DNA of 47,763 nt from Planctomycetaceae bacterium UBA4655 (GCA_002405515.1 DHLZ01000079.1:2439-50201); one strand, 5' to 3'; positions 3,116-26,888 are shown, counted from the stretch's first letter. Notes: generated by a model not told the origin, from the sequence alone. Numbers and translations are program-made.

Positions 3116-4400
3116 ATGGCCCACGACATCGCCCGCGGGCTCGCGCGGGCGTTGGTCGGCAGGCCGCAGCGATCGACTGCGGAACGTCGAGGCCGACTTG
3201 GCTCGCATTCGCTCGAGCGGCTCGAGGACCGCCGGCTGCTCGCGTTCGATCCGTCTCCCCAGGCCCAGGAGATGCTCGAGCACGTCAACCGGATGCGGAT
3301 GAACCCGCAGGCCGAGTTGCAGGCGCTCTTTTCGAGCCTCGACCCGCTGCGGGCCCGCGACGCCGATGCCAACGCCGCGGTCCAGTATTTCCGCGATCCC
3401 TCGGCAGCCGAGATCCGCTCCGAGTGGCCGGCCCTGCAGCCGACGGCCCCGCTTGCATGGAACGAGAGCCTGTCGGCCGCGGCCACCGCCCACTCGCGGC
3501 TGATGATCCAGCACGACACCCAGTCGCACCAACTGCCCGGCGAGCCCGACCTCGTGACGCGGACCCGCAACGCCGGCTACGCGGGCTACTCGGGCATCGG
3601 GGAAAACGCGTTCGCTTTCGCGAAGAACGTCTTCCACGCCCACTCCGCATTCGCGATCGACTGGGCCGTTCCTGATCGCGGCCATCGCACGATGATGATG
3701 GACCCGTCGTTCAAGGAGTTCGGCGCGGGGCTCGAGGGCGACGCGTCGCCGGCCACGTCGGTCGGGCCGCTCGTGGTCACGCAGAACTTCGGCAGCCGGT
3801 TCGCCGACGGCGGCCCGTTCCTCGTCGGTGTCGTCTACCGGGACGCGAATGCAAACCAGCGGTACGACGCGGGCGAAGGAGTCGGCGGCGCGACCGTGCG
3901 GGTGATCGGCCCCTCGGCAACCTTCACGACGACGACGATGTCGGCGGGCGGCTACCAGTTGCAGGTTCCGCAGGGCACCTACACGGTCTCCGCGACCGGA
4001 GGCGGCCTCCCCCGGGCTCTTCCAGGCCACCGGCGTGCAGGTCGTTTCCGCGAACGTGAAGGTCGATTTCAACGGGCAGGCGGCTCCGGTCGCCACCGTT
4101 CCCTCGGCCCCGACCAACGTCGTCGCCACCACCTTGAATCGGCGGGGAACCGTGCGATGGTCGCCGCCCGCCTCGAACGGCGGCCGGGCCGTTTCCAGCT
4201 ACCTGGTGCAGGCGTCGAAGGACGGCGGCCGCACGTGGCAGACCGTGCGGACGGTCAACGGCAAAACCACGTCCGTCAACGTCCCCGGCCTGATCTACGG
4301 CACGACCTACCTTTTCCGCGTGGCCGCCAGGAACGCGGCCGGTGTGAGCCCGTTCTCGACGGCCTCGGCCGGCGTCGCGCCCTCGAGACCGCCCGTGTGA
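3116..4400 (+). CDS. Secreted CAP/SCP (PR-1-like) domain protein with beta-sandwich region and C-terminal fibronectin type III domain; reading frame broken by a 1-nt insertion at C-run 4009-4013
   Basis: CAP motifs: HVNRMRMNP, PLAWNESLSAAATAHSRLM, GENAFAF, DRGHRTMMMDPSFKEFG. The next region is TVRVIGPS..GGYQLQVPQGTYTVSATGGGLP. After the C5 run the meaningful frame switches to ORF 4035-4400: LFQATGVQVVSANVKVDF..PSAPTNVVAT..GTVRWSPPASNGGRAVSSYLVQASKDGGRTWQTV..TTYLFRVAARNAAG, a clear FN3 domain. The original frame continues as an Arg/Gly-rich nonsense tail to 4414. Confidence 0.75.
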
Positions 4401-5554
4401 GGCCGCTTCCATGAATGGGAGGGTTTCCCGGCCGACGACACGATACTCCTGAAAAGCGCCGAATACGCCGACGCTATCCCCTCGCGCGAGTATGCCGTTC
4501 CCACGTGCCGCCGGGCGGCCCGGCCGATCGCTTCCCGGTCGATCTCCATCGCCCGACGCAAACCAACTTCGAGGGCCTCGCTGCTGCCTGCGGGAACGAG
4601 GATGCCGGTTTTCGCGTCCTCAACCATGTCTTTGGTGGCGCCGACGCAGTCGGTAACGACCACCGGCCGACCCAACGCCATCGCCTCCAGGATTGCGTTG
4701 CTGAACCCCTCGTACCGCGACGATGAAACGAATAGATCTGCAGCCCCGACCTCGGCGAGAACCCGGTCGCTGTGCCCCGCCAATTGGACCGAGCCGCCGA
4801 TCTCGAGCCGATGGGCAAGAGCCTGCAGCGCAGGCAATTCCGGCCCCTGGCCAAAGATGGTCAAAACGGCATCCGGATAATCCACGAGAAATCGTGCAAA
4901 CGCAGGCAACAGCAGGTCGAAGCCTTTTTGTGGGGCCAACCGACCAACGGCGACCAGCGATGGATTGCCACGCACGCGTTGCTGACCCATCGCCGCCTGC
5001 GTGGCACGCGCCGCGTCGATGTCGGCCAACGAAACAGGATTGCCGATCGCGACGATCCTTTGCCGCGGCGTGCCGAATGGAGCCAATTCGGCCGCCATGT
5101 CGGATGACTGGGCGACCAATACGTCGGGCATTCTGATCAAGCGTCGCACGACCTGCTCCGCGACCCGGTGCTTCAGCAGCGACGTTCTCTTCAATTCTGC
5201 GAAGTCGGCGGCAATGGCGTTCGCCTGCCGTGCGACATGCGGCGGCCGCCAACGCTGGAAAAGTTTCGCCATTGAAGCGGTCGCGTTCATCCGCAACGTC
5301 GTGAACACCAGATCGGGGCGCAACGCATCGACGGCTTTGGCAAACCGCCAAAACGGATACCGCCCGCCACCCGTCACGCGAACTTCGACGTCTCGAGGCA
5401 GCGCCTTGAAATACCGTCCGCCAGCCTTCGCCACCGCCAGCAATGGCAGAACTTCCGTCCTGTTCAAGCCACAGATGACCTCATAGAAGACGCGGTCCGG
5501 TCCTCCTGAATTCAGCTCCGGGATCGCGAACAACACTCGAGCGGGCCTATCCAT
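4307..5554 (-). CDS. Glycosyltransferase family 4 (GT-B, retaining type)
   Basis: Start MDRPARVLFAIPELNSGGPDRV (ATG at 5554) overlaps the stop of the upstream GT2 gene (ATGGATAG). E-x7-E region: SSSRYEGFSNAILEAMALGRPVVVTD. The last roughly 30 codons overlap the convergent FN3 coding end. Confidence 0.85.
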   Translation of the reverse strand: MDRPARVLFAIPELNSGGPDRVFYEVICGLNRTEVLPLLAVAKAGGRYFKALPRDVEVRVTGGGRYPFWRFAKAVDALRPDLVFTTLRMNATASMAKLFQRWRPPHVARQANAIAADFAELKRTSLLKHRVAEQVVRRLIRMPDVLVAQSSDMAAELAPFGTPRQRIVAIGNPVSLADIDAARATQAAMGQQRVRGNPSLVAVGRLAPQKGFDLLLPAFARFLVDYPDAVLTIFGQGPELPALQALAHRLEIGGSVQLAGHSDRVLAEVGAADLFVSSSRYEGFSNAILEAMALGRPVVVTDCVGATKDMVEDAKTGILVPAGSSEALEVGLRRAMEIDREAIGRAARRHVGTAYSREGIASAYSALFRSIVSSAGKPSHSWKRPHTGGLEGATPAEAVENGLTPAAFLAATRKR

Positions 5555-6635
5555 GCGGCAGCACCCGCTGCTCGTCGCCGACGAACCCGCCCTCCCGATA
5601 CGACGCCATGGCGGACTCGAGCCGTCGCCGGGCGATCGCCGTTCCGACCGGCCCCAACCAGAGCGCAAGCCTCAACATCCGTGCGAGCCGTGACGACGCC
5701 ATGAACGCCGGATAGGTCGCTTGCCCGAAATCGTGGTGCCTTCGGGCCAATGCCCTCTCTCCTTCCGCAACCGACTTCAGCCCCCGCAGCGCGACGTCGT
5801 GCTCGATGAACGCGCGTGCGAGATCGTCTTTCGTGAGTCCGGCGGCCGCCAGCACTTCCGGCGCGGTGTCGAAGGTCGCGCGATACTGATCGAGCAAATG
5901 CTTCAGGGCCCCCGACGAACGCTGGAGCGACCCCTGATTGCTGGTGTGCACCCGATAACTGAACAGGGGCAGATCGACGTAGTAGACGCTCTCCGCGACG
6001 CTCAGGATCTTCCAGACGAAAAACTTGTCCGGGTTGATCAGGCTGCCGCCGCCATACCCCTCGACCGCCTCGTAGACGCCGCGCGGGTAGCAGGTCGTCG
6101 CGAACGCCATCGGATTGCGAAGGTGAAGCAGCGCCTGCCGCAACAGGCTGCGAGCCGGAACCTCCATGATGGAGCCGCCGACGGCACGGCTCAATTCCGC
6201 GTTCGGCCGGGCGTCTACCCATTGCCGCGGATCGAGCCCCGTCCGCCCGGTCGTCTTTCCGTCGCCATCGACGACATGCTGATCCGAACAAAACACCGCC
6301 GTCTTCGCGGCCGGCCCCAGCGCCGCCGCCAGTCGCGCGTAGGTCGCCAGAGCGGCCGGACCCGCAAGATCGTCGGACGACAACAGGATCATCCGGTCTC
6401 CAGTCGCCCCCTGACACGCCCGGTCGAGGTTGCCGGCGAACCCGACGTTCCAGCGATTGCGGTGCAGCCGGATCCGCGGGTCCGCGATCTCCGTCACCCG
6501 CGCCACGGAATCGTCCGTGGACGCGTTGTCAGAGACGATCACCTCGAATTCCGCGTCCTGGGCCAGGACGCTGCGGATCGTTTCCCCGATGTATCGGCCG
6601 TAGTTGTAGTTGGGGATGCAAATCGAAAACTTCAT
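5547..6635 (-). CDS. Glycosyltransferase family 2
   Basis: MKFSICIPNYNYGRYIGETIRSVLAQ..EVIVSDNASTDDS..LSSDD, a typical GT-A/GT2 N-terminus with a DxD motif. ATG at 6635; the ORF track begins at a TTG two codons upstream. Confidence 0.88.
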   Translation of the reverse strand: MKFSICIPNYNYGRYIGETIRSVLAQDAEFEVIVSDNASTDDSVARVTEIADPRIRLHRNRWNVGFAGNLDRACQGATGDRMILLSSDDLAGPAALATYARLAAALGPAAKTAVFCSDQHVVDGDGKTTGRTGLDPRQWVDARPNAELSRAVGGSIMEVPARSLLRQALLHLRNPMAFATTCYPRGVYEAVEGYGGGSLINPDKFFVWKILSVAESVYYVDLPLFSYRVHTSNQGSLQRSSGALKHLLDQYRATFDTAPEVLAAAGLTKDDLARAFIEHDVALRGLKSVAEGERALARRHHDFGQATYPAFMASSRLARMLRLALWLGPVGTAIARRRLESAMASYREGGFVGDEQRVLPHG

Positions 6636-6761
6636 GGTCAAGCTGCCTTTTCCGAAGCACCATGCGGTTCGCCCGGGCAGTGACGCCGGGAATCGAACGA
6701 ATTTTTCGTACGCTGCCGGGGCTCCCCGGAGACCGAGTTTGGGCCGCTCGTGGCACGATGG

Positions 6762-8057
6762 TCATGAAGCGACGCCGGCCGCGGTGCGGAGCCTTGGCAG
6801 CATCGCGTCGGCGATCTGGCTTCGAATCGAATCGAGTTTGACCGCCAGGTCGGCGGCGAGCGTGTCGCGGCGCGACCGGGCCGTGTTGGCCTGTGCCACG
6901 ACGGCCTCGACCCACCCGTCGGCCGGTGGGCGGATCACCTCGACCGGCAATCCCAGCTCCTGGAACAAACCCGTGATCTTGAACGACGCGCCCTCGACCG
7001 GCACCACGGGCGCACCGCCCACCATCGCGAGAATCGCCGTGTGCATTCGACTCGTGACCACCAGGTCGAAGGCCCCGAGCAGCGCCGCGTAACGGTCATA
7101 ATCGAGCGATGCCCCCTCCATCGACACGCCGAGCCGCTCTTTCAGCTGCTCGTAGAAGGCGTGGTCCGAAGGCGCTTCGTTCGACACCAAAACGACACGG
7201 TGTCCGGCGGCCTGCAGTCCGCGGATCACGTCGAACCACCGCCCCGCATACCCCCGAGCCGCCGCCTCCGGAACGTTGATCGCCACCGCGACCTCCCCCG
7301 GCCGCCGCGGCAGCGCGGCCGCGGTTCGACTGGCAAGCGCCAGATCGGGAGCCACGACGACGTTGCCAAGGTCGCCGCCCATCTCGCGGAACGCCTGCAC
7401 GCTCGTGGTATCGCGAAACCCGACCAGGTCGAGTTCGCGATAGACCTTGGGGATGATCGCACGCAGCGTCGCGTCCTCGATATCCATCGTGTGGTTCACG
7501 ATGGCGGTCGGCACGCCGAGCTTGTGCGAGACATGTGCATCGATCAGGTGATAGAACGCCGGCTCCGGCTCGCGCGGGTAGAATTCGCCGGCCGGGTTGA
7601 CCACCACGAGACGTGCGCGTTGGCACGCCGCCAGACGCTGCAGATACGAGTGACGGTAGCCGCCGATCCTCGCGATCCAGCCGCGAAGATTGAGCCGCTT
7701 TCGCAGTTCCGGGAAGCGGACGGGCACCGGTATCGCTTCATCGAGCATGATCCGCGGCGCCGGATCCGGCGGCTGCTGGGCGCCGGCGCCGGGAGCGAGT
7801 CTCGCCAATCTGGTGGTCAGGTCGTCGAACGCACGGTAGGGATCGCGAGACCGCGCCAGCTGCGACAACGTGTATTGCAAAAGATGGGGCGGCCGACGCT
7901 CGAGCACGCGGATCGGCACGCCGGGAAACGCTTGTTGCAGCAGCCCCAGCCATGCGGCGGAAAGCGCCTGGTTTCCCTTGTTCAGGGTGCGCAACCGCGT
8001 GATCAGCAACACCTCGCCGGGGGAACTCGTCATCGCTTCTTCGACAGCTCGCAACAT
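6762..8057 (-). CDS. Polysaccharide pyruvyl transferase family protein (WcaK/CsaB-like)
   Basis: Family signature near the C-terminus: DLVVTSRMHTAILAMVGGAPVVPVEGASFKITGLF. Also a central VVNPAGEFY block. The start could be 8057 or the ATG at 8033. Confidence 0.75.
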   Translation of the reverse strand: MLRAVEEAMTSSPGEVLLITRLRTLNKGNQALSAAWLGLLQQAFPGVPIRVLERRPPHLLQYTLSQLARSRDPYRAFDDLTTRLARLAPGAGAQQPPDPAPRIMLDEAIPVPVRFPELRKRLNLRGWIARIGGYRHSYLQRLAACQRARLVVVNPAGEFYPREPEPAFYHLIDAHVSHKLGVPTAIVNHTMDIEDATLRAIIPKVYRELDLVGFRDTTSVQAFREMGGDLGNVVVAPDLALASRTAAALPRRPGEVAVAINVPEAAARGYAGRWFDVIRGLQAAGHRVVLVSNEAPSDHAFYEQLKERLGVSMEGASLDYDRYAALLGAFDLVVTSRMHTAILAMVGGAPVVPVEGASFKITGLFQELGLPVEVIRPPADGWVEAVVAQANTARSRRDTLAADLAVKLDSIRSQIADAMLPRLRTAAGVAS

Positions 8058-8398: not shown

Positions 8399-9067
8399 TC
8401 AGACTTTTTCGAGCACGACGCAGCTCACCTTGAAGCTTCTGAACAGCCAGAGCATCCGGTGCAGCTGCGCGCAGGCGATCCAAGGCCTCGCGACGTTCAG
8501 GATCCTCAATCCGGCCATCGTGAAGTACCGCAGGCCCCCGATGATCCCGCCGGCGAACGCCTCGTTTCTCAACGTCCCGTCCACGAGGACGCTGCCCTTC
8601 ACCAGCTTCATCCCCGGAAACGCCTTCGCCAGTTCCTCGGGCGAAGGGCGGTACAACGTGTCGATCGGGTCCGGATGATAGGGATAGCTGAGCGGAACCG
8701 TCACGACGACCCGCCCGCCGTGCGCCACGATGTCGATCAGGGCCGAACTCAACGGCCCACGATCCGCAAGATGCTCCAGGAGGTTCGAGCAAATGACGGA
8801 ACGGAAACCCATTTTCTTCAACGTCGAGACGAAAGCCGGATCGGTCAGGTCGCCCGCCAGATCGACTCCTTCGTCCTCCTGAATGTCGATGTTGACGACC
8901 TTGTATCCGGCCTCACGCAATGGCCGAAACAATCTGTTTTCGATGTGCGGCTTCTTCTTCGTGCGGAACTCGAGGGTTTGCGATCCTATATTGGCGATCG
9001 GGGACATTTCGTCCGCGCCCCGCGACATCAGCTCGGCGCGAATCCAATCGGCTTCGTTGGGCCTCAT
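8399..9067 (-). CDS. Class I SAM-dependent methyltransferase
   Basis: The internal start MRPNEADW (ATG at 9067) forms an ATGA overlap with the flippase stop at 9064-9066. Contains VVNIDIQEDEGVDLAGDLTD and VICSNLLEHLAD (Methyltransf_11/23-like). Confidence 0.75.
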   Translation of the reverse strand: MRPNEADWIRAELMSRGADEMSPIANIGSQTLEFRTKKKPHIENRLFRPLREAGYKVVNIDIQEDEGVDLAGDLTDPAFVSTLKKMGFRSVICSNLLEHLADRGPLSSALIDIVAHGGRVVVTVPLSYPYHPDPIDTLYRPSPEELAKAFPGMKLVKGSVLVDGTLRNEAFAGGIIGGLRYFTMAGLRILNVARPWIACAQLHRMLWLFRSFKVSCVVLEKV

Positions 9068-10605
9068 GCTCGTGATCCTTTCGTTGGCGGGGTTGACGTC
9101 TGGAATGCGTCCTTCGCAACCCGCTGGAGTGTGGTGCCCTTGAACCAGCGGAATGTGGCCCGCCGGGCCCGGATGCCAGCCGGAAGCCAGGCATCGGGAA
9201 GAAAGACCGCGGTCGCGGCAAAAACAGCCGCACAGACACCGGCCCTCAACGTCCAATCCATGATTCCGGGAGAAACATCGGCCAGGATCGACAGTCCTTC
9301 GCTCGCACCGATCAACGCCGCACCGATTCCATATCCGGGAATCGCCGCGACGAGCCGCTGAAGAAAGCTGCCCGCCAGCAGCCTGTCGGATGGTCCGCCG
9401 GGAAACGCCAGGGTCGCATAGTGTCCGGCCGCCACGACCGAGGCGATGACGACGACTCCGCTACTGGCACCCAGCATGAGCCCTCCGGCCATCAGCAGGA
9501 CGATCATCAAGTTCCGTCCGGTCAGATGCAGGATCGAACCGCGGGCATACGTGAAGCCGTCGAGATAGACGCGGGCCACGCGTGCCGGAAGAGACGAGGC
9601 CAGGATCGACAGCGGAACGACGACCGCGGTCCACTGGCCGCCCAGAAAAAGTGCGACGACGGCCTCCCTCATGGCGATCACGGCGGCCGACACGATCGCC
9701 GCAGCAAGCACGACCATCCGCAACCCGCCGAGAGTCGCACGCGCGGCAACCGCATCGTCGAGACTCCGCTGGGCGACAAAGGCCTGCCGGACCACGGAAT
9801 CGATGGCAGCGAACGGCTCCTTGAGTTGCGTCGTGATGTTGTACGCACGGCTGTAAATGCCGGCGTCGGCCGCCCCCAACGCGGAAACGGCGAACATCGT
9901 GTCGATGTTCGCCGTCAGCCACGCCAGCAACCGCGACGAAAACCCGAGCCCCCCCATCCGCCACGCACCGAGCATCCGCATCTGCATCGGTGGAAGAATC
10001 GGTATCCCGGCCGAAATGCTCCCCGCGACCGTCGTCGTGCCGAGCGACGCCAACTGCCCCCCAACCAAACTCCAGATGCCACATCCCGCCAGGGCCAGCG
10101 CGATCGAAACGGCCGCATGGACGATGCCCGAAAGCAGGACATAGCCGCCGACCTCGGCGTACCGATGTTGCCTCCGCAATAGGGCATAGCTGGCGGAAAT
10201 GAATGGCTGCAACAGGATTGCAAAACAGGACACGCGAAGAACCGGAGCGAGATCCGGCAGATTCATCACGGCTGCCAACCAGGGGGCGGACAACCACAAC
10301 CCGCACGCAACCGCCGCCATCAGGGCGACGCTCGCCCATATGAGGTTGGCCAGGTCGAGCCGCGACAGCGAGTCTTCGCGGATGACCGGCACGTCGATCA
10401 ACCCGTCGAGCACCGCGATCGCCAGCGGCAAGACCATGAAGGCGACGGCGAACAGGCCAAAGTCCTCCGGCGTCAGCAATCGCGCCAAGATCGCGACGCC
10501 CAACAGCCCAACGGCCATCCGGGCAAAGCGGCCGCCCAGCAGCCACGCCGTGCCGCGCAGAACCATCGCTCCGACGTGTTTGTCCGATCCACGGCTAAGC
10601 TGCAT
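9064..10605 (-). CDS. wzx: Wzx-type oligosaccharide flippase (MOP superfamily polysaccharide biosynthesis protein)
   Basis: 513-aa polytopic membrane protein. The N-terminus LRGTAWLLGGRFARMAVGLLGVAILARLLTPEDFGLFAV is typical of Wzx/RfbX. Its start overlaps the upstream gene stop by 11 nt. Confidence 0.85.
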   Translation of the reverse strand: MQLSRGSDKHVGAMVLRGTAWLLGGRFARMAVGLLGVAILARLLTPEDFGLFAVAFMVLPLAIAVLDGLIDVPVIREDSLSRLDLANLIWASVALMAAVACGLWLSAPWLAAVMNLPDLAPVLRVSCFAILLQPFISASYALLRRQHRYAEVGGYVLLSGIVHAAVSIALALAGCGIWSLVGGQLASLGTTTVAGSISAGIPILPPMQMRMLGAWRMGGLGFSSRLLAWLTANIDTMFAVSALGAADAGIYSRAYNITTQLKEPFAAIDSVVRQAFVAQRSLDDAVAARATLGGLRMVVLAAAIVSAAVIAMREAVVALFLGGQWTAVVVPLSILASSLPARVARVYLDGFTYARGSILHLTGRNLMIVLLMAGGLMLGASSGVVVIASVVAAGHYATLAFPGGPSDRLLAGSFLQRLVAAIPGYGIGAALIGASEGLSILADVSPGIMDWTLRAGVCAAVFAATAVFLPDAWLPAGIRARRATFRWFKGTTLQRVAKDAFQTSTPPTKGSRA

Positions 10606-12238
10606 GGCGTAGCCTGCCGCCGTTCAGCACGCTTTCAGCGAAAAACCGGCCGTAAAGGCGGAGCCCGTTGGCCAGCAATGCACGCTGACGCAGCGGATCG
10701 TCCGCATGCAGCGGAATCATCGACAGGAACAACGACACCATCGCCGCCATGACGGCACGATCGCGAAATTCGACACCCGCCACCTGGGCGGCCAGAAACT
10801 GGCCTTCGAGCCAATCCCGCAGGGGATCTTCTGGAATCGTCAGCGCGAAATCCGACCCGTCTCCCTCGTCTCGCAATCCTTCGCCCACGATTTGGTCGTA
10901 GCGGCCGACGATGCTGTGGCCCAACTTGGCGATATCGTAACGGATATCGCCATAAATCGTCGCTTCATCCCCGATCAAACCGCGAGGATCGATCAATTGA
11001 ATCCGATCGCTCCGCAGGTCGAACAGCATGTTTGAAAAACAAAAGTCGCCATGCATAATGCAAGCGGGGCGGTTCGGGGCCACTGCAATCTCCCGCTCCA
11101 ATACCGCTGCGATCGAATCCAGACTGCCCACGCCTCGGCCGTTGATCGTCAGGGACGTATCTCGCTGAGGCAACGTCGTGGGAAGCTGGCTCAATCGCTC
11201 GCGCAGCTTGCCCGAGACCAACCAATCGAGGGATGAGTCACGGCCGTGCCCGACATGCTCCGCGGCGAGAGTCAAATACTCGAGGCACGAGTCCAAGATG
11301 CGCCGCCAAACGAACCTGGAAGACCTCGCCAAATAGAGCTCGGATACCGTCGGATAACTCGTGTACAGCGTCCGGTACTCGCCGGACACGGCTGCGGCAG
11401 GATCTTCGATCAGCCTGACGGTGAAAGGCTGCAGGTCGGCTGGCACGGACCGCAACCAATTTGCTTCCGCATCGATTTTCCGGCGATCGTGGCTGCGCTT
11501 GCGGACAACGCCCCCATCGACGCCAATCGCGTTGAAGTGCCGTGCAGAGGCCAGACTGCGTCGCGATGCATAGAAGGTCTTCAAATGCCCGCAATCCAGG
11601 GTCTGCAGATGGGTCTGCGGCCGCACGCGAGTCTCCCGGCAATAGGCGTCGAGTGCCCGCGTGAACGAGAACTCCCTCGCTGCAAGACACTTGAGCAGCC
11701 GCCACGGCTCGCGAATCGCAAAGTAACCCGACAGGATCTGCGAGTTCGCGGTGATCGCGTCGCTACGGTCCGCGTCGCGAACACCGCTAATCAGCATTCC
11801 GTCAGCATCGACGACCCCCCAACGATACTGCTCTGTCACCGGTCCGACGGACCATGCGTCCTCGGCCGGATTCTCCGGGGTGATCGCCAACGTATCGCCG
11901 TGCAGAATTTCGAGCGGCTTGTCGGGGCCGATTTCCAGGACAGAGTGGAATACCGACAGGCCGAGCGAAGTGCGCGGATCGACGAAAACGGTTCGCACGC
12001 CGCCGCTTTCCAGAATGCGCCGTTGCGGTTCGGTAATTCCGTAATCCTGAGGCAAAGACAGCCATTTATTCTTCCGATCCGCAATCTGTGACAATTGGTG
12101 CTGGATGACGAAGGCCGCACCGATCGGCAAAAACGCTGGCGGAATCCGGCCGAATTCGGCCTGCATTTCCTCGCCGATATAGCCGCCGGACGTGATCAAC
12201 GTATTCCATTCATGTTCCATGGGAATCGGACTCCCCAC
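10595..12238 (-). CDS. Bifunctional-looking protein: N-terminal nucleotidyltransferase-like (GT-A fold) domain plus C-terminal APH/choline-kinase-family phosphotransferase
   Basis: N-terminal part: TLITSGGYIGEE..FGRIPPAFLPIGAAFVIQHQL. This has an NTP-transferase-like layout without a canonical GxGxR loop. C-terminal part carries the Brenner motif CIMHGDFCFSNMLFD and the Mg-binding block IQLIDPRGLIGDEATIYGDIRYDIAKL. Confidence 0.7.
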   Translation of the reverse strand: MGSPIPMEHEWNTLITSGGYIGEEMQAEFGRIPPAFLPIGAAFVIQHQLSQIADRKNKWLSLPQDYGITEPQRRILESGGVRTVFVDPRTSLGLSVFHSVLEIGPDKPLEILHGDTLAITPENPAEDAWSVGPVTEQYRWGVVDADGMLISGVRDADRSDAITANSQILSGYFAIREPWRLLKCLAAREFSFTRALDAYCRETRVRPQTHLQTLDCGHLKTFYASRRSLASARHFNAIGVDGGVVRKRSHDRRKIDAEANWLRSVPADLQPFTVRLIEDPAAAVSGEYRTLYTSYPTVSELYLARSSRFVWRRILDSCLEYLTLAAEHVGHGRDSSLDWLVSGKLRERLSQLPTTLPQRDTSLTINGRGVGSLDSIAAVLEREIAVAPNRPACIMHGDFCFSNMLFDLRSDRIQLIDPRGLIGDEATIYGDIRYDIAKLGHSIVGRYDQIVGEGLRDEGDGSDFALTIPEDPLRDWLEGQFLAAQVAGVEFRDRAVMAAMVSLFLSMIPLHADDPLRQRALLANGLRLYGRFFAESVLNGGRLRHAA

Positions 12239-12653
12239 ATGAGATGGTCGCCCTCAGCGTGTCCATCGGCAGCGCCAGGAATTGGTCGGGCCGCATGCTC
12301 CGCAATTTCACATAAAAACCCTCGTGACCGCACCAGGGCTTGCCCATGTGGATTTCGTCGTAGCGCACGCCATGCTTGGCCAGCCACGCGATCAATACGG
12401 GCAGCGTATGTTTGTTGATGAGGCCGATGTTGCCAGCGTAGGTTCGCATGTTGCGCGCGCTGTACAAGACGATCCGCACACCAGCCGCATGTAAGGCGTT
12501 GACTCGCTCTATCACGTCGCTGCGAGGCTCCTTCGCGGTGTAGTCGAGACTCGAATTGTCGATCGTCAGCGTGCCATCGACATCGACGATGAGCCGCGGC
12601 ACCTCCGTCTCGCCTTCCTGTCGTGTGATGCTGACGGACATCTCAGGCTGCAC
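12210..12653 (-). CDS. HAD-superfamily phosphatase (capsule-locus type, subfamily IIIC-like)
   Basis: HAD motif I is LIVDVDGTLT. Further motifs: VLYSARN and IHMGKP. This resembles, from memory, the EcbF/BcbF capsule biosynthesis phosphatase subfamily. The start is 12653 or 12641. Confidence 0.7.
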   Translation of the reverse strand: MQPEMSVSITRQEGETEVPRLIVDVDGTLTIDNSSLDYTAKEPRSDVIERVNALHAAGVRIVLYSARNMRTYAGNIGLINKHTLPVLIAWLAKHGVRYDEIHMGKPWCGHEGFYVKLRSMRPDQFLALPMDTLRATISCGESDSHGT

Positions 12654-13383
12654 CTTTCCAAGGCTGAGGAGCCGGGATCAGCGCCTCATATTCGTGCGGC
12701 AGTCCGCAATGAACCAGATCCTCCGCCGCAACCGTCCCGTATCCGATGCGATGACCGGACGCGATGAGGTGGTTGTAGATCGGAGCGACATAGAGTTCCG
12801 GCGCGCTGGGGCGGGACCGCTCCTGCATCAGAGCACTGCGAAACAAGTCGCTGGAGGAAAAATGATAGAGGCCCGTGCAGCATAGATCGCTGATCGGAAT
12901 TTTTTCCGCAGTCTTCGCGGCGATCCCCGGTTCGCCCTCCTCGGGCAGCACGAACGACCAGTTGTCGCCCGCTCCCTTGAACACCTCGAGCCATCCCGCA
13001 AGACCGTCCTGGATGGGAAACGGCGATGCTGTGGGATTTCGAAAAGTATCGATGTTGAAGATCGTCAGCGGCGCCTCCGGCGGCGTTCCCGAAGCCGCAA
13101 GTCCCATTTCGACGGTTTCCGCCTGCCCTGCCGTAGGGGCGACGAGTTCGGTAAACAACGCTCGCCGGATTCCCAAGGCAGCCGCCCGCTCCGTCAAAAA
13201 CGTCTTCACGCCGCCGGTTTCCCGGTAGATGAACAAAAAGGGTTGGGTCTCAAAACTCGGCTGAAAGCTCGAAACAGCGAAATCGAAAACCGTGCCGCCC
13301 CACAGCGGCAGCATGTATTTCGGAAGGGTGTATCCCTTCTGCGTGAACCTGTTGCTCAGGCCGGCCATGGGGAAAATGATCAT
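12643..13383 (-). CDS. Nucleotidyltransferase-like (GT-A fold) capsule biosynthesis protein
   Basis: The start MIIFPMAGLSNRFTQKGYTLPKYMLPL (ATG at 13383) forms an ATGA overlap with the upstream stop. The PMAGxSxRF...PKYML pattern corresponds to the nucleotide-binding loop of sugar-phosphate nucleotidyltransferases. Confidence 0.65.
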   Translation of the reverse strand: MIIFPMAGLSNRFTQKGYTLPKYMLPLWGGTVFDFAVSSFQPSFETQPFLFIYRETGGVKTFLTERAAALGIRRALFTELVAPTAGQAETVEMGLAASGTPPEAPLTIFNIDTFRNPTASPFPIQDGLAGWLEVFKGAGDNWSFVLPEEGEPGIAAKTAEKIPISDLCCTGLYHFSSSDLFRSALMQERSRPSAPELYVAPIYNHLIASGHRIGYGTVAAEDLVHCGLPHEYEALIPAPQPWKGAA

Positions 13384-13718
13384 GCAGCGTCCAGCTTTTG
13401 GCGGATCTGATCGTAACTGTGGGCAAGAAACTCTTCGGGTGTGATCGCCTTGTCGTCGAGTGTCCATGCCTCCAAGCCTGTGGACGGCTTGCCGAAGACG
13501 ACGGAATCGCAGATCGAAGCCAAGGAGCCGATTTCAGCCGCCCAATCCTGAACCTTCGATGTGGCGAGGTTCGGACCATCGTGGCCGGCGGAAAGAACGA
13601 TCGAGAACCCATCCCTGCGATACGATGCGATGGTGTCGCGAAACGCCGGGCCATCGCGCCGAAGCGAGGCACGCACGTCCTCAAGATCCAAAACGACGAT
13701 TTGCATCAGGTGTTCCAC
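13380..13718 (-). CDS. Small HAD-like protein, divergent paralogue of the 12210-12653 phosphatase
   Basis: MQIVVLDLEDV occupies the motif I position (D-x-E instead of D-x-D). Also SIVLSAGHD and VVFGKP, which mirror VLYSARN and IHMGKP in the neighbouring gene. It is the first gene of the minus-strand operon. Confidence 0.5.
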   Translation of the reverse strand: MEHLMQIVVLDLEDVRASLRRDGPAFRDTIASYRRDGFSIVLSAGHDGPNLATSKVQDWAAEIGSLASICDSVVFGKPSTGLEAWTLDDKAITPEEFLAHSYDQIRQKLDAA

Positions 13719-14014
13719 CGCTCACGAACGGTCAAAAAAACTCGTGGCCGAAGGTTCGGTTTGCCTGTGTCCCATGCGTGCCTGTGTGCGGACTACGAAA
13801 GGACGCGGGAAACACACATGCTGCAAGCCATGGGCGTGCCGGACTCTGGGAAATTCAGCGTGGTGATTACGCTCGCGAGGGCAGACGGGTCAATGGCACA
13901 TTCGCAACCATTACGTGTCACTGAGCGACCCGCGGGGCGGAAGACGCCCCCCCCGACGGAAGGGATGTGCTGGTTGGACAAGCCTTGACGGGGAAGCGAA
14001 GACGCCGGGGAAAA
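13719..14014. promoter_or_regulatory. Divergent intergenic region between operon A (minus) and operon B (plus); presumed promoters
   Basis: About 300 bp non-coding spacer between divergently oriented first genes. It is locally A/T-richer (e.g. GGTCAAAAAAACTCG near 13730). No specific -35/-10 elements could be assigned. Confidence 0.35.
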
Positions 14015-18549: not shown

Positions 18550-18655
18550 GTGCGTTCGCACCCGGCTTCTGACTCTTCCATTTCCAGTTGCCCAAGTTTT
18601 TCATCTGTCCATTTTTCACCGTTTCCAAGTGAACCCATTGCAAAGGAGCAGTCTC

Positions 18656-19879
18656 ATGAGCGCCTCGTGTGTGTCCTTCCGGTCCGAGTCTGACAACGAC
18701 TACGCAATCGATTTTCGCGGGTCTTTCGAGAAGATTACCAAGCAGAATCGGCGGCCGCAGTATCGCCGTTCGAGCACGCCGCCAGTCAGCGTCAACGGTA
18801 TTCACAGGCGGCGCAACAGCCGCTGGACGTGGGGCCACCTCCGTGGCGCTCAGTCTCAGAATGTCCTCGCCTTCGCCCGCTGTGCCCTCGCCGCCGCTGC
18901 TGCCCTGTGTGCTTCTGCCACATCGGCGGGTGTGATTTCTTTCGGCACTTCTGCAGCTGCCTACAACTTGGTGCCGATCGGAAATCCCGGCAATGTAGCC
19001 AACCCGTCCGCACCCACCGGAACCCCCAACGTTCGCTCCCTCGGCGGTGGAAGCGTGGCGTACCTCTACGAGATCGGAGCCACCGAGGTGACGAACTCGC
19101 AGTACGCATACTTCCTCAACAGCGTCGCCAAAACGGATACCTACAACCTCTTCAATAGTTCGATGCGTATCTCCAGAACCGGTTCTGCAGGCAACTGGAG
19201 TTACTCAACAACGCCCGCCAACGCCAACCGGCCCGTGGGCTGGGTGTCGGCTCTCGACACCTTCCGGTTTGCCAACTGGATGCAGAATGGTATGCCGACG
19301 ACCGGCGTTCAAAATGCGTCCACGACGGAGAACGGCGTCTACAACATGGCTCTCTCCCAGCCGATTCGGCAGGCAGGAGCCTCTTTCTGGATTCCCAGCG
19401 TGAACGAGTGGTACAAGGCCGCCTACTATAATCCCACGCTCAACTCGGGTTCCGGTGGCTACATGCTCTATCCGGTGAACAGCAACTCGATCGTTTCGGG
19501 AACGGCTCCGGGCGGCGCCACAACGGCGAGCATTGCCAACGCCTACAACGGCTCGATCAACGTGGGTAGCTACACCAGTGCGACTTCATTCTATGGGGCC
19601 TTCGACATGGCGGGCAACGTGTCCGAGCGTCTCGACACCATCAGCGGCTCCAGTTACACCTACGCCTTGTCCCACTGGGTCAGCCCGGCCTCCCAGACGG
19701 CTTCGAACAGCTCGACCACGTTCAACGTCGCGTCGATCGGCGGCGAGCAAGCGCAGCTCGGCTTCCGTATCGCGGCCGTGCCGGAGCCCAGCACGATCGT
19801 ACTCGCCGGCATGGGCGCGGCGTCGGCTTTCATCGGCTTGAATCGTAAGAAGCTGAAGCGTGTCCGGCGGCGGGCCTGA
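18656..19879 (+). CDS. PEP-CTERM-anchored protein with FGE-sulfatase (SUMF1/EgtB/PvdO-like) domain
   Basis: ATG at 18656 lies 7 nt after AAGGAG (18643-18648). FGE-type blocks: YEIGATEVTNSQYAYFLNSV, NRPVGWVSALDTFRFANWMQNG, IPSVNEWYKAAYY, YGAFDMAGNVSE. The C-terminus is VPEPSTIVLAGMGAASAFIGLNRKKLKRVRRRA, i.e. PEP motif, TM helix and basic tail. Confidence 0.85.
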   Translation: MSASCVSFRSESDNDYAIDFRGSFEKITKQNRRPQYRRSSTPPVSVNGIHRRRNSRWTWGHLRGAQSQNVLAFARCALAAAAALCASATSAGVISFGTSAAAYNLVPIGNPGNVANPSAPTGTPNVRSLGGGSVAYLYEIGATEVTNSQYAYFLNSVAKTDTYNLFNSSMRISRTGSAGNWSYSTTPANANRPVGWVSALDTFRFANWMQNGMPTTGVQNASTTENGVYNMALSQPIRQAGASFWIPSVNEWYKAAYYNPTLNSGSGGYMLYPVNSNSIVSGTAPGGATTASIANAYNGSINVGSYTSATSFYGAFDMAGNVSERLDTISGSSYTYALSHWVSPASQTASNSSTTFNVASIGGEQAQLGFRIAAVPEPSTIVLAGMGAASAFIGLNRKKLKRVRRRA

Positions 19880-21290: not shown

Positions 21291-23057
21291 ATCTGTTGTT
21301 CGTGGCGAACAAGAAACTCCCCCCTCTGACTACCGGGTGCAGTACGGGCTGACGACCAAGGCCTGCCGCGTGTTTTTCGGTCTCCCCGGCCGGCCCGAGG
21401 GCGTGCCGGAGAGCCGCTTCGTGCACGTCGACGCCGGTGAGGGCTTCCGTCTGTCGGACCTGAGGACACTGGTGCGGCTGTGGGCCTTCCTCCGTCGTCG
21501 CGGCGTGGACTACGCGCATTTCAGTGCCACGATCCTGATTCTGCTCGGCCCCTACGTCGCGGCCGCGGCGGGCACCCCCTGCCTGATCACGCTCACGGGA
21601 TTCGGCCGGACGTTCACGAGCCGGCGACTCGCGTACCGGCTGTTGCGGCCCGTCTACTGGCTGCTCATGGCCGGCGCCGTGCGGATCGCGGAGCGGGTGC
21701 TTCTGCAGAACACCGGCGACGTCGCCGCGATGCGGGCCCGCTATCCGAAGTTGGCCTCGAAGTTCGTGCTCGTGGGCAGCGGTCTCGGCGTCGACGTCAG
21801 GCCCGTCGAACGACCCGCGGAGGTTTCGTGCGCGTGTTGCTGGTGGCCCGACTGCTGCCCGACAAGGGGGTCGGAGACTTCCTCACGGTGGCTTCCCGGC
21901 TGCACGGGCCGGAAGTGAAGTTCGTGCTCGTCGGACCGGCGGCCCGCGGCGGCGACAGCACGCTCCAAGCGGTGCGGCGCGCCGCGGAGGCCGGCGAGAT
22001 CGAGTATCTCGGCGAACTCGATGCCGACGGACTCCGACGCGAGTACGCGCTGGCACACGTGCTGCTCTTTCCTTCCGTTGGCGAGGGGATGCCGCGAGTC
22101 ATGCTGGAAGCCGGCTTCGCGGGGCTGTGCCCGGTGGCCTACGACATTCCGGCCAACAAGGACCTGGTGAGGCCCGGAGGAGGCATGCTCGTGCCCACCG
22201 GCGATCTCGAGGGGTTGGCGGCGGCCGTGGCCGGCCTGACGGCCGACCGGGACCGGATCACCGCCAACGCGCGGGCCTTCCAGCGGCACGTGGTGGCGGA
22301 ATTCGGCATGGAGGCGTTCGTTCGGAGGATGGATGGCATCGTGGCCTCGCTGCGACCCGACCGAGCGGCCGACGGTGAAGGCCCGACAGCCGCCGCAGCG
22401 GCACCGGGCATTCGCCCCGCCACACCCGCCGACCTGCCGGCCGTCGTCGCGGCGCACTCAGCGGCCTTTCCTGGATTCTTCCTGACCCGCATGGGGCCTC
22501 GATTCCTGGGTGCCTACTATCGGATGGTGCTCGAATCGCCGGAGGGCATCCTGCTGGTCGCCGAATCGGCGGGCGCCGTCGCCGGTTTCGTGGCCGGGAT
22601 CGCGCGGCCCGCCGCGTTCTACCGCGCCATGATGCGGCGGCCGTGGGCGCTGGGCTTCCCGGCGATGCTGCGTCTCGTCACGCGGCCAAGGTTGCTGCTC
22701 GACGTGGCGGAACGCGTGTGCCGGCTCGGCTCGAGCGGGCATCCGCAGGGGCATCGCGGCCCTAGTCAGGCCCGAGCCAAGCTGGCAAGTCTCGCGGTGC
22801 TTCCGTCCCAGCGGCGACTCGGGCTGGGTCGGCAACTCGTCGCGGCCTTCGTGGCGGAGGCCGGCCTGCGGCAGGTCGCGGAAGTCCGGCTCACGACCGA
22901 TGCGGTGGACAACCAGGCGACGCACGCCTTCTACGAGAGCCTCGGTTTCTCCCGCTCCTCCGACGTCCTGGGCACCGCGGACCGGCCACTCACCGAGTAC
23001 ACCATCACGACGGCCACCAGCGGAACCGGCGCCCCGCCCGTCGAGCGGGCGGCCTGA
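21287..23057 (+). CDS. GT4 glycosyltransferase fused to a C-terminal GNAT N-acetyltransferase domain; reading frame interrupted twice (C6 run 21319-21324 and about 21790-21826)
   Basis: MNLLFVANKKLPP is coupled to the wzy-like stop, then the frame switches to SDYRVQYGLTTKACRVFFG..LITLTGFGRTF..VLVGSGLGVD. A second switch leads to GFVRVLLVARLLPDKG..LFPSVGEGMPRVMLEAGFAGLCPVAYD (E-x7-E). The GNAT part is IRPATPADLPAVVAAHSAAF..LASLAVLPSQRRLGLGRQLV..THAFYESLGF. Confidence 0.75.
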
Positions 23058-26884: not shown

Positions 26885-26888
26885 CGCG

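Follow-up and report, generated by a model that had tools for sequence, protein, structure and literature searches.

Gene organization of the module

The window, a stretch of 47,763 nucleotides of DNA from Planctomycetaceae bacterium UBA4655, was examined by ORF analysis, and four translationally coupled genes, here termed g1 to g4, were found on the minus strand from 13706 to 10595, where they stand first in a Wzx-type polysaccharide operon. All four ORFs were present on this strand at the coordinates given by an earlier interpretation of the DNA, here called the sequence-only reading. The ORF of g1 spans 13380 to 13718, with GTG 13718 as its limit, and the likely start at ATG 13706 gives a protein of 108 aa. 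For g2, listed at 12643 to 13467, the real start was the internal ATG at 13383 (MIIFPMAG), giving 246 aa. The ORF of g3 (12210 to 12653) likely begins at ATG 12641 and encodes 143 aa, while that of g4 (10595 to 12238) likely begins at ATG 12220 and encodes 541 aa, or 547 aa if read from GTG 12238, the limit of the ORF. The chosen starts agree with the gene calls of the source contig (108, 246, 143, and 541 aa for g1, g2, g3, and g4). Inspection of the junctions bore out the tight coupling that had been described from ATGA and 11- to 29-nt overlaps: g1 and g2 share a common ATGA, the stop of g2 and the start of g3 lie 1 nt apart with ATG or overlap by 11 nt with GTG, g3 and g4 overlap by 11 nt with ATG or 29 nt with GTG, and g4 overlaps the next gene, encoding a Wzx-type flippase, by 11 nt.

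The flippase (9064 to 10605, minus strand) was assigned by Pfam and by its junction with g4. Next in the operon, Pfam matches indicated a methyltransferase-like gene, a pyruvyl transferase (6762 to 8057), a GT2 (5547 to 6641), and a GT4 (4307 to 5668), and a matching downstream gene order was found in the relatives L001, L084, L085, and L090. Across the sub-clade the neighborhoods vary, with pyruvyl-, sulfo-, or methyltransferases.

The nucleotidyltransferase g2

The product of g2 (12643 to 13383, minus strand) was assigned to the sugar-phosphate nucleotidyltransferase family of BcbE and PDB 4evw, with an E value of 3.3e-62 against 4evw, 45% identity to the ORF that follows kfoE in Escherichia coli K4, and 3,558 homologs. 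Its signature motifs are PMAGLSNRF (13345 to 13371), which is the PMAGxSxRF loop noted previously, NIDTF (13042 to 13056), and AEK (12895 to 12909), and residues G8, S10, R12, K22, D112, E160, and K161 were invariant (alignment A4). All the expected elements (the G-x-G/S-x-R loop, the Lys that follows, the catalytic Asp, and the sugar-phosphate motif E-K) are therefore in place, in a protein of the size (about 240 to 250 aa) of BcbE/4evw-type nucleotidyltransferases (NTases). Pfam NTP_transferase models gave no match to the window g2 protein itself, and PF12804 matched some of its homologs. The name given by NCBI to g2 homologs is "glycosyltransferase family 2."

The KfoE-family fusion g4

The product of g4 (10595 to 12220, minus strand) matched E. 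coli K4 KfoE over its full length in BLASTP, with 33% identity over 531 aa (E 8e-85). The kfoE gene was pinned by mapping published deletion primers, whose arms directly flank the 522-aa CDS in L087 with 0 mismatches. At E ≤ 1e-30 the family contained 730 clusters, almost all of 505 to 545 aa, and g4 displayed its two-domain architecture of an NTase-like N-terminal domain and an APH kinase (about 520 to 545 aa).

In the AF2 model of g4 (pLDDT 94.7), the N-terminal domain (11549 to 12205) has a sugar-1-phosphate nucleotidyltransferase fold. Foldseek matched it to GalU/RmlA with an E value of about 1e-10 and a TM score of about 0.6 normalized to the target, and hhalign identified it as a distant paralog of the g2 family (probability 92.5%, E 5e-7). 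The alignment to g2 begins past the G-x-G-x-R (G-x-S-x-R) loop, which is absent from g4, and contains no equivalent of E-K; the motifs PPAFLP (12125 to 12142) and LHGDTL (11888 to 11905) are present. Although the fold was retained, the catalytic motifs of a sugar-1-phosphate nucleotidyltransferase were not found, and the domain is, as judged from sequence and model, a predicted pseudo-NTase with its catalytic motifs lost. The sequence-only reading was thus correct in describing a loop-less second NTase-like domain.

The same reading had described a fused kinase of the aminoglycoside/choline kinase fold, and this also held for the C-terminal half, with Pfam APH scoring 26.1 bits against a cutoff of 23.2. 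The domain (10619 to 11530) carries the HxDxxxxN catalytic loop as HGDFCFSN (11030 to 11053), the DxG-type Mg-binding site as IDPRG (10979 to 10993), and the N-lobe Lys/Glu pair. Residues H396, G397, D398, N403, D417, K247/K254, and E258 were invariant across 41 diverse members of the g4 family.

Two HAD proteins with partial motif loss

The product of g3 (12210 to 12641, minus strand) probably belongs to the EcbF-BcbF "capsule biosynthesis phosphatase" family of HAD proteins. It matched TIGR01689 with 144.6 bits (E 1.4e-42), below the curated cutoff of 162, and PDB 1xpj with an E value of 1.8e-38, and was 46% identical to the K4 HAD ORF. HAD-IIIA and HAD-IIIC models were also matched, weakly, and the GmhB equivalog gave no match to the HAD in the profile search. 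The protein had been called a canonical HAD phosphatase; motif I, DVDGT (12570 to 12584), and motifs II and III are indeed present, but the Asp-Asp of motif IV is replaced by Lys-Leu (within 12297 to 12314).

The small HAD-like protein encoded by g1 (13380 to 13706, minus strand) is HAD-related, as had been proposed, but it is not a separate kind of protein: ORF analysis, a partial TIGR01689 match (NCBIfam), and alignments identify it as a diverged, cap-less paralog of g3, and in tblastn it aligned at 26 to 35% identity to the HAD genes found elsewhere. Its motif I is degenerate, reading DLEDV (13674 to 13688) instead of DxDxT so that the Asp+2 residue is missing, while the Ser, the Lys, and motif IV (LDDKA, 13446 to 13460) are kept. 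Hence, neither g3 nor g1 carries all four HAD motifs [DxDx(T/V), S/T, K, and a DD or comparable acidic pair]. In the sub-clade, the phosphatase step may have been weakened, altered, or divided between the two HADs. The occurrence of g1 was restricted to the sub-clade with the order g1-g2-g3-g4, in which the duplicated HADs have lost complementary motifs, the Asp-Asp of motif IV in the main HAD and an intact motif I in the small one.

A conserved three-gene cassette

Locus comparison revealed that the HAD, the KfoE-like fusion, and the NTase are adjacent in this order in about 70 of 80 genomes from Alphaproteobacteria, Gammaproteobacteria, and Bacteroidota. The KfoE-type fusion is invariably accompanied by a HAD and a true NTase. 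Hundreds of Proteobacteria and Bacteroidota carry the conserved cassette within capsule, O-antigen, and LPS-core loci, including those of the K4 capsule, O20/O137-type O-antigen, and Vibrio wav LPS core, and its parts also occur as natural fusions of the HAD with g4 (P0383) or with g2 (P0159). By these comparisons the conserved unit is three genes, not the four that had been grouped together. In the window the three genes are likewise adjacent and co-directional within a surface-glycan locus, but their order is unlike the canonical HAD-fusion-NTase, and the sub-clade is further set apart by the extra paralog g1 and an altered HAD active site. The flanking glycosyltransferases differ between loci, and g2 is 39 to 60% identical across phyla (45 to 60% to canonical cassette members); the same cassette among differing glycosyltransferases, together with this level of conservation, points to a small-molecule pathway rather than an acceptor-specific transferase.

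Capsule region 2 of E. coli K4 contains the same three families, with the HAD ORF, kfoE, and a downstream 241-aa ORF adjacent and co-directional in a polysaccharide locus, as in the window. The K4 order is HAD, KfoE, NTase, with a single HAD bearing an intact Asp-Asp and export by an ABC transporter (kps), whereas in the window the genes run g1, g2, g3, g4, both HADs are partly degenerate, and export is Wzx dependent. The K4 kfoE gene is needed for the β-fructofuranose branch, and its deletion yields a capsule without fructose, i.e., unfructosylated chondroitin (PMC3673904, PMC8858990, PMC7925653).

The similarity to capsule loci of Pasteurella multocida types B and E, which the sequence-only reading had offered, proved real, since BcbF of the BcbE-BcbF-BcbG set (EcbE/F/G) defines TIGR01689, which g3 matches with an E value of 1.4e-42. 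These loci, like the window, also carry wecB/wecC-type genes. BcbE, a 241-aa NDP-sugar-transferase-like protein, shares its size and annotation class with g2, and the Pasteurella order of NTase-like protein, HAD, and large protein would be that of g2-g3-g4 if BcbE/F/G correspond, BcbF and g3 being the only pair aligned. BcbG probably belongs to the g4 family, judging from gene adjacency and size rather than alignment; Pasteurella was not among the top matches. In contrast to the Pasteurella HAD, g3 falls under the TIGR01689 cutoff and lacks motif IV, and g1 has no known counterpart there. Type B P. multocida mutants in bcbE or bcbG no longer carry the fructose side chain, while bcbF mutants were unobtainable. 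Genetic evidence connects both the K4 trio and BcbE/F/G with attachment of fructose as a side branch (PMC3673904, PMC8858990, PMC13552107).

In the Vibrio wav cluster, the same cassette lies in a core-oligosaccharide locus with a heptosyltransferase, KdkA, WaaA, and WaaL. Structures of its HAD (1xpj) and NTase (4evw) are solved, 4evw being 98% identical to the V. mimicus copy. The wav cassette is followed by WavE, as in 31 of 80 loci, whereas the window is without WavE. The LPS core of V. cholerae O1/O139 contains fructose, and the capsule of Haemophilus influenzae type e bears fructofuranose branches. In Campylobacter jejuni HS:1, fructose is added by a single 849-aa protein and the 11-gene locus has no recognizable cassette; the cassette is therefore not the sole route to fructosylation.

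The module is consequently not unassigned, as had been thought, being homologous to both the K4 HAD-KfoE-NTase trio and P. multocida BcbE/F/G. It appears to be a sub-clade variant of a cassette known from genetics: orthology to a characterized pathway extends to the genetic level only, and the literature search found no paper giving enzymology for any cassette member, explaining the chemistry, or identifying the fructose donor.

A proposed route to an activated fructose

The domains and motifs support the view already taken of the module, namely, an activation-type set of kinase, phosphatase, and nucleotidyltransferase that differs from textbook NDP-sugar pathways. The preferred reading, with a probability of roughly 0.55, is that the window holds a sub-clade variant of the HAD/KfoE-like/BcbE-like cassette supplying a fructofuranose side branch by way of an NDP-fructose. 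The APH-fold domain of g4 would phosphorylate the anomeric O-2 of fructose-6-phosphate to give fructose-2,6-bisphosphate, with the degenerate NTase domain holding the sugar during the kinase step. The HAD phosphatase g3, possibly with g1, would then remove the 6-phosphate, g2 would join the resulting fructose-2-phosphate with an NTP to form NDP-fructofuranose, and a locus-specific transferase would attach the fructose to the pyruvylated heteropolysaccharide that the downstream genes specify and that Wzx exports. We infer the substrate, the step order, the nucleotide, the bisphosphate intermediate, and the presence of fructose on the window glycan.

By analogy, the route would follow the logic of NDP-glycero-manno-heptose synthesis (HldE/HddA, GmhB, HldC/HddC), a likeness pointed out previously and upheld here: anomeric phosphorylation of a sugar phosphate drawn from central metabolism, removal of the original phosphate by a small HAD, and nucleotidylation. 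HAD-IIIA includes GmhB, the heptose-bisphosphate phosphatase of that kinase-phosphatase-NTase route. At the sequence level the module is not a member of the pathway, as its kinase is APH-fold rather than a ribokinase or GHMP kinase and its HAD lacks a GmhB equivalog match; moreover, no isomerase would be needed and the substrate would be a ketose. The domain arrangement of g4 resembles that of Bacteroides Fkp (fucokinase/GDP-fucose pyrophosphorylase), in which an NTase-fold domain also lies N-terminal to a sugar kinase, but Fkp has a catalytic NTase domain and a GHMP-type kinase, whereas g4 has an NTase domain without catalytic motifs and an APH-type kinase, and a separate NTase is encoded.

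The partial motif losses in the HADs (motif IV in g3, Asp+2 in g1) may count against a simple phosphatase step in the sub-clade. An improbable alternative keeps the same chemistry in a different order, in which the bisphosphate is converted to NDP-fructose-6-phosphate, fructose-6-phosphate is transferred to the glycan, and the HAD then dephosphorylates the polymer. Removal of phosphate after transfer is an established pattern, as in the sucrose-6-phosphate and trehalose-6-phosphate synthase/phosphatase pairs and in PRPP-dependent ribofuranosylation. The unobtainable bcbF mutants would fit build-up of a toxic or dead-end intermediate, and the altered active sites of the window clade could reflect a polymeric substrate. 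However, the HAD equals the other two proteins in its conservation across loci whose acceptors differ and is fused to g4 or g2 in some genomes, both of which better fit a soluble small-molecule substrate, and its weak matches include HAD-IIIA, the class of the sugar-bisphosphate phosphatase GmhB. About equally improbable is that the sub-clade uses the cassette for another sugar, e.g., another ketose phosphate, so that the K4/Pasteurella fructose assignment is not transferable. With an identity of only 33% between g4 and KfoE the specificity could differ, and the rearranged order, extra paralog, changed HAD active site, and differing neighborhoods of the sub-clade point the same way; against this, canonical members share the motifs of the kinase and the NTase and most of the invariant residues, the identity of g2 to these reaches 45 to 60%, and no family member has been linked to a non-fructose sugar.

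The annotation of kfoE as a fructosyltransferase (PMC8858990) suggests a further reading, in which the kinase domain makes a phosphorylated donor and the GT-A-like N-terminal domain transfers its fructose. Deletion of kfoE alone abolishes fructosylation, the domain has a GT-A-type Rossmann fold, and the NCBI name of g2 homologs is that of a glycosyltransferase family. Nevertheless, a knockout cannot separate donor synthesis from transfer, the N-terminal domain is without a DxD motif and has nucleotidyltransferases, not glycosyltransferases, as its closest structures, and one family would need to serve GlcA-O3, ManNAcA-O3/O4, and LPS-core acceptors. WavE appears the better transferase candidate in the loci where it follows the cassette, and we regard a transferase role for the KfoE family as unlikely. 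Least probable by far is a phospho-alcohol or aminosugar substituent made along the lines of LicA/LicC (phosphocholine) or AmgK/MurU. The sequence-only reading had proposed this from the APH-fold kinase and NTase, which are indeed the architecture of those systems, but they lack a phosphatase, and neither Pfam nor NCBIfam matched the module to choline kinase, LicC, or MurU. Alditol-phosphate, choline, or ethanolamine products are likewise now unlikely because homologous cassettes are genetically tied to a fructose side branch.

Should the NDP-fructose route be correct, it could be the first known to a nucleotide-activated ketohexofuranose, with bacterial fructose-2,6-bisphosphate made by an APH-fold kinase that uses a recycled, catalytically dead NTase domain as its substrate site and, in the sub-clade, a phosphatase split between two complementary HAD paralogs working only together; this fuller picture is tentative and on balance doubtful.

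Glycans of medical and industrial importance bear fructofuranose branches, among them the E. coli K4 capsule, a chondroitin feedstock, and the P. multocida B/E capsules of hemorrhagic septicemia strains. By sequence and predicted fold, the so-called fructosyltransferase KfoE is a pseudo-NTase/kinase fusion, a fold that does not support the transferase label. With a HAD and a true NTase as its constant partners, the donor question becomes one of three-enzyme reconstitution, and two of these cassette proteins have known crystal structures (1xpj and 4evw). The reading also predicts unnoticed acid-labile fructose in other cassette-bearing glycans, for example that of the E. coli O20/O137-type O-antigen cluster.

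Gene organization and predicted proteins

Four consecutive ORFs are present on the minus strand of the window (G+C of ~66%): g1 (13380-13718; likely start ATG 13706; 108 aa), g2 (12643-13467; likely start an internal ATG at 13383; 246 aa), g3 (12210-12653; ATG 12641; 143 aa), and g4 (10595-12238; ATG 12220; 541 aa). The gene calls of the source contig (GCA_036747375.1), at 108, 246, 143, and 541 aa, match these inferred starts. The genes are as tightly coupled as the sequence-only reading had described, with an ATGA common to g1 and g2 and 11-nt overlaps at g3/g4 and at the junction of g4 with the Wzx gene. The anatomy given to the module in that reading was also correct.

For g2, the Pfam search gave no match, and PDB entry 4evw, deposited as a "nucleoside-diphosphate-sugar pyrophosphorylase," was matched with an E value of 3.3e-62. 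Residues G8, S10, R12, K22, D112, E160, and K161 were invariant in 27 diverse family members; in RmlA/GalU-type sugar-1-phosphate nucleotidyltransferases (NTases), these residues make up the G-x-G/S-x-R loop, the Lys that comes next, the catalytic Asp, and the E-K motif. The HAD protein g3 matched NCBIfam TIGR01689, "EcbF-BcbF capsule biosynthesis phosphatase" (E 1.4e-42), at 144.6 bits, below the cut-off of 162, and also PDB entry 1xpj (E 1.8e-38), with weak matches to the HAD-IIIA and HAD-IIIC models. Because the match of g1 to TIGR01689 was confined to the C-terminal part of the model, and g1 fell on the HAD gene of other loci in tblastn (26 to 35% identity), g1 is a paralogue of g3 that has diverged and has no cap. 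The recently solved 134-aa "capsule biosynthesis protein" 9iqw, with DVDD at motif I and an intact IDDK at motif IV, is related more distantly to the cassette HAD (E 3e-11). Literature searches for 9IQW found no paper naming it, and those for 1XPJ, 4EVW, and BcbF gave no useful return.

The sole Pfam match of g4 was APH, barely over threshold, and phmmer against the PDB gave no match. A g4-family profile searched against the PDB gave weak matches to APH, ACAD11, and GlmU only, beside summed matches to designed TPR proteins that were rejected as spurious. An AlphaFold model from the single sequence was unusable (pLDDT 35.6); the model from a 116-sequence alignment reached a pLDDT of 94.7 and a pTM of 0.92. 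Its N-terminal ~230 residues resemble GalU/RmlA-type NTases (Foldseek, E ~1e-10) and form a distant paralogue of g2 (profile-profile probability of 92.5%, E 5e-7), in an alignment that begins past the G-x-S-x-R loop and lacks the E-K motif. When the kinase domain was used with Foldseek, each of the best 50 matches lay in the NTase domain, and no structural neighbor of the kinase was obtained among them. In the kinase half, H396-G-D398...N403, D417-P-R419, and a Lys/Glu pair (K247/K254-E258) were invariant in 41 diverse members. Because the loop and E-K motif are missing and the kinase residues are invariant, g4 is predicted to be a dead NTase domain joined to a live kinase. The Foldseek and profile-profile results, the APH match, and the invariant residues thus bear out the earlier proposal of an NTase-like/APH-kinase fusion.

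Relationship to KfoE and BcbEFG

The module, previously considered unassigned, belongs to the KfoE/BcbEFG cassette for fructose branches, which is composed of a HAD, a g4-type fusion, and a g2-type NTase. The cassette was found in 131 of 5,426 complete E. coli genomes by distant blastn with a low-GC cassette copy as the query. In one E. coli context, a kps group-2 capsule locus, the gene content of region 2 was that of K4, in the order galE/kfoA, a 546-aa ORF, a 686-aa GT2 polymerase, an IS element, a 477-aa ORF, a 126-aa HAD, a 522-aa "hypothetical protein," a 241-aa "GT2," ugd/kfoF, and a 446-aa GT2. The position of kfoE was fixed with the primers that Badri et al. 2021 used for lambda-Red deletion (PMC7925653, Supplementary Table 3). 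Their 50-nt homology arms match the E. coli locus L087 with 0 mismatches at 12191-12240 and 13810-13859 and flank exactly the 522-aa CDS; therefore, KfoE is the homologue of g4 (33% identity over 531 aa, E 8e-85). The ORFs flanking kfoE encode homologues of g3 (46% identity) and g2 (45% identity). Deletion of kfoE yields unfructosylated chondroitin, and KfoE has been termed a fructosyltransferase (PMC3673904, PMC8858990, PMC7925653).

The parallel drawn in the sequence-only reading to similar gene sets in Pasteurella capsule loci was right: the TIGR01689 family matched by g3 is named after BcbF of Pasteurella multocida type B, and bcbE and bcbG mutants lost fructose and a bcbF mutant was unobtainable (PMC13552107 and a 2021 study cited therein). 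BcbE is a 241-aa "NDP-sugar transferase-like capsular biosynthesis protein" (IPR016873). From gene adjacency, we infer that BcbG is the g4 homologue; it was not among the best 120 matches of a KfoE-seeded search.

Distribution and contexts of the cassette

The g4 architecture was found in 2,909 representative clusters at an E value of ≤1e-3 and in 730 at ≤1e-30, with nearly all lengths between 505 and 545 aa. A scan of species-representative genomes gave >570 loci in Alphaproteobacteria (Acetobacteraceae, Phenylobacterium, Sphingomonas, Roseomonas), Gammaproteobacteria (Vibrio, Photobacterium, Shewanella, Marinobacter, Aeromonas), and Bacteroidota. The order HAD, fusion, NTase, directly adjacent, was observed in ~70 of 80 fetched loci. 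Natural fusions join the HAD to the KfoE-like protein (P0383, 643 aa) and the g2-type NTase to the HAD (P0159, 389 aa). A third protein (P0285, 1,227 aa) combines a KfoE-like part with TPRs and a C-terminal region of ~700 aa of no assigned family; its last ~300 aa, the part tested, matched no Pfam family and had no significant similarity to WavE.

The LPS-core cluster holds the cassette in Vibrionaceae, Shewanella, and Marinobacter, where it neighbors ADP-heptose epimerase, GT9 heptosyltransferase, KdkA, WaaA, and WaaL. Entry 4evw has 98% identity to the cassette copy of V. mimicus and 1xpj is near-identical to the V. mimicus cassette HAD, placing both structures, by sequence, in this context. 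Fructofuranose occurs in the V. cholerae O1/O139 core and in the H. influenzae type e capsule; a literature search for V. cholerae core fructose gave no useful return.

In E. coli O20:H12 (L088, NZ_CP062855.1), galF is followed directly by the three cassette genes (10001-12713) in an O-antigen cluster of the O20/O137 family. According to a 2019 review, the published O20 structure is at odds with the O20 galF-gnd cluster; the word "fructose" is absent from its main text. The standard mild-acid LPS work-up may have removed an acid-labile branch of fructofuranose. C. jejuni HS:1 differs in that fructose is added via a single 849-aa protein, without a visible cassette. An extra capsule insertion in C. 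jejuni IA3902 holds consecutive "unknown" genes (CJSA_1353-1355; 240, 507, and 132 aa) (PMC7901785), which resemble the NTase, KfoE-like protein, and HAD by size alone.

Proposed route to an activated fructose

The KfoE/BcbEFG cassette is so far known from genetics. The papers examined do not discuss kinase, phosphatase, or nucleotidyltransferase chemistry for its proteins, and no relevant paper came out of literature searches for a fructose donor activated by a nucleotide. Read literally, the literature makes KfoE itself the transferase, which is possible. The acceptors differ, however, being GlcA in K4, ManNAcA in Pasteurella, the LPS core in Vibrio, and an O-antigen locus in E. coli of the O20/O137 type; the surrounding glycosyltransferases are different in each context, and g2 identity across phyla is 39 to 60%. 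These observations argue for a soluble donor-synthesis pathway rather than an acceptor-specific transferase. The earlier "activation module" reading is a reasonable one.

The proteins of the cassette follow the logic of the NDP-heptose route, combining a kinase of the anomeric type with a small HAD and a complete NTase for sugar phosphates, and by this analogy we propose a path from fructose-6-P to NDP-fructofuranose. The g4 kinase, with a sugar-binding site supplied by its dead NTase domain, would convert fructose-6-P to fructose-2,6-bisphosphate, the HAD would release fructose-2-P, and g2 with an NTP would form NDP-fructofuranose. Other step orders are possible, such as dephosphorylation following transfer. 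Membership in the NDP-heptose pathway itself was ruled out by the different kinase fold, and the suggested LicA/LicC and AmgK/MurU logic did not hold, as those systems are without a phosphatase and no family matches were found here. With KfoE reread and a route of three enzymes proposed, the fructofuranosyl donor, a question of long standing, becomes open to direct testing, an insight that is family-wide and not particular to the window.

One transferase common to all cassette loci was not found. In 31 of 80 loci (L011, L017, L030, L060, and 27 others, at ~10300-11300), including V. mimicus and several Acetobacteraceae, the gene right after the cassette encodes a WavE protein (PF07507, E 8e-95), and this family of unknown function is a candidate fructosyltransferase. 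Neither K4 nor the window carries a WavE gene, and a borderline match lies nearby in Sphingomicrobium (L089; 26.5 bits versus a cut-off of 27). KfoB and KfoD have no Pfam domain, and a literature search for wavE/wavD gave no useful return.

Complementary HAD degeneration

The window contributes a four-gene variant whose order is rearranged and whose HAD proteins have degenerated in complementary ways. Roseovarius amoyensis and several metagenomic contigs are among the closest g4 relatives (at least 49% identity). The order g1-g2-g3-g4 was seen in the window's contig and in five further contigs that were fetched. Throughout these loci, the Asp-Asp of g3 motif IV is gone, replaced by KL, QS, RA, RA, ES, or AR, and g1 keeps "DDKA" in every one. 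Motif I of g1 ranges from an intact DLDD in L090, whose g1 retains the cap insert, to the degenerate DLED, DFED, DAVD, and DATD. Motif IV is also altered (HD, SA) in two related genomes without an adjacent g1. The g1 and g3 pair may form one phosphatase, g1 may have taken over catalysis in some lineages, or the phosphatase step may be altered in this sub-clade.

Surrounding polysaccharide locus

The window region is a Wzx-dependent heteropolysaccharide locus. By Pfam, g4 is followed on the same strand by a Wzx flippase, a weak methyltransferase-like ORF, a pyruvyl transferase, a GT2, and a GT4. The wider region holds an AT3 acyltransferase, an SGNH protein, a DegT aminotransferase, an epimerase/dehydratase, a Bac_transf/PglD-type initiating transferase, and an ORF resembling a nucleotide-sugar dehydrogenase, the last read from its sequence. 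The slot between the Wzx and pyruvyl transferase genes varies among close relatives: the methyltransferase-like ORF in the window (8399-9256, minus strand), a sulfotransferase in Pelagerythrobacter and Roseovarius (L001, 14425-15306; L085, 6835-7668), and a TylF-type methyltransferase in L090 (9113-9862). Because its content differs in this way, the slot suggests a swappable decoration on one backbone.

An FGE-sulfatase-like ORF (18629-19879, plus strand) carries a C-terminal PEP-CTERM sorting motif, so the host probably has an exosortase system beside the polysaccharide locus. Two further fusions were observed, a GT4 glycosyltransferase with a GNAT acetyltransferase (21480-23057, plus strand) and the Bac_transf initiating transferase with a PglD-like hexapeptide acetyltransferase (25610-27034, minus strand).
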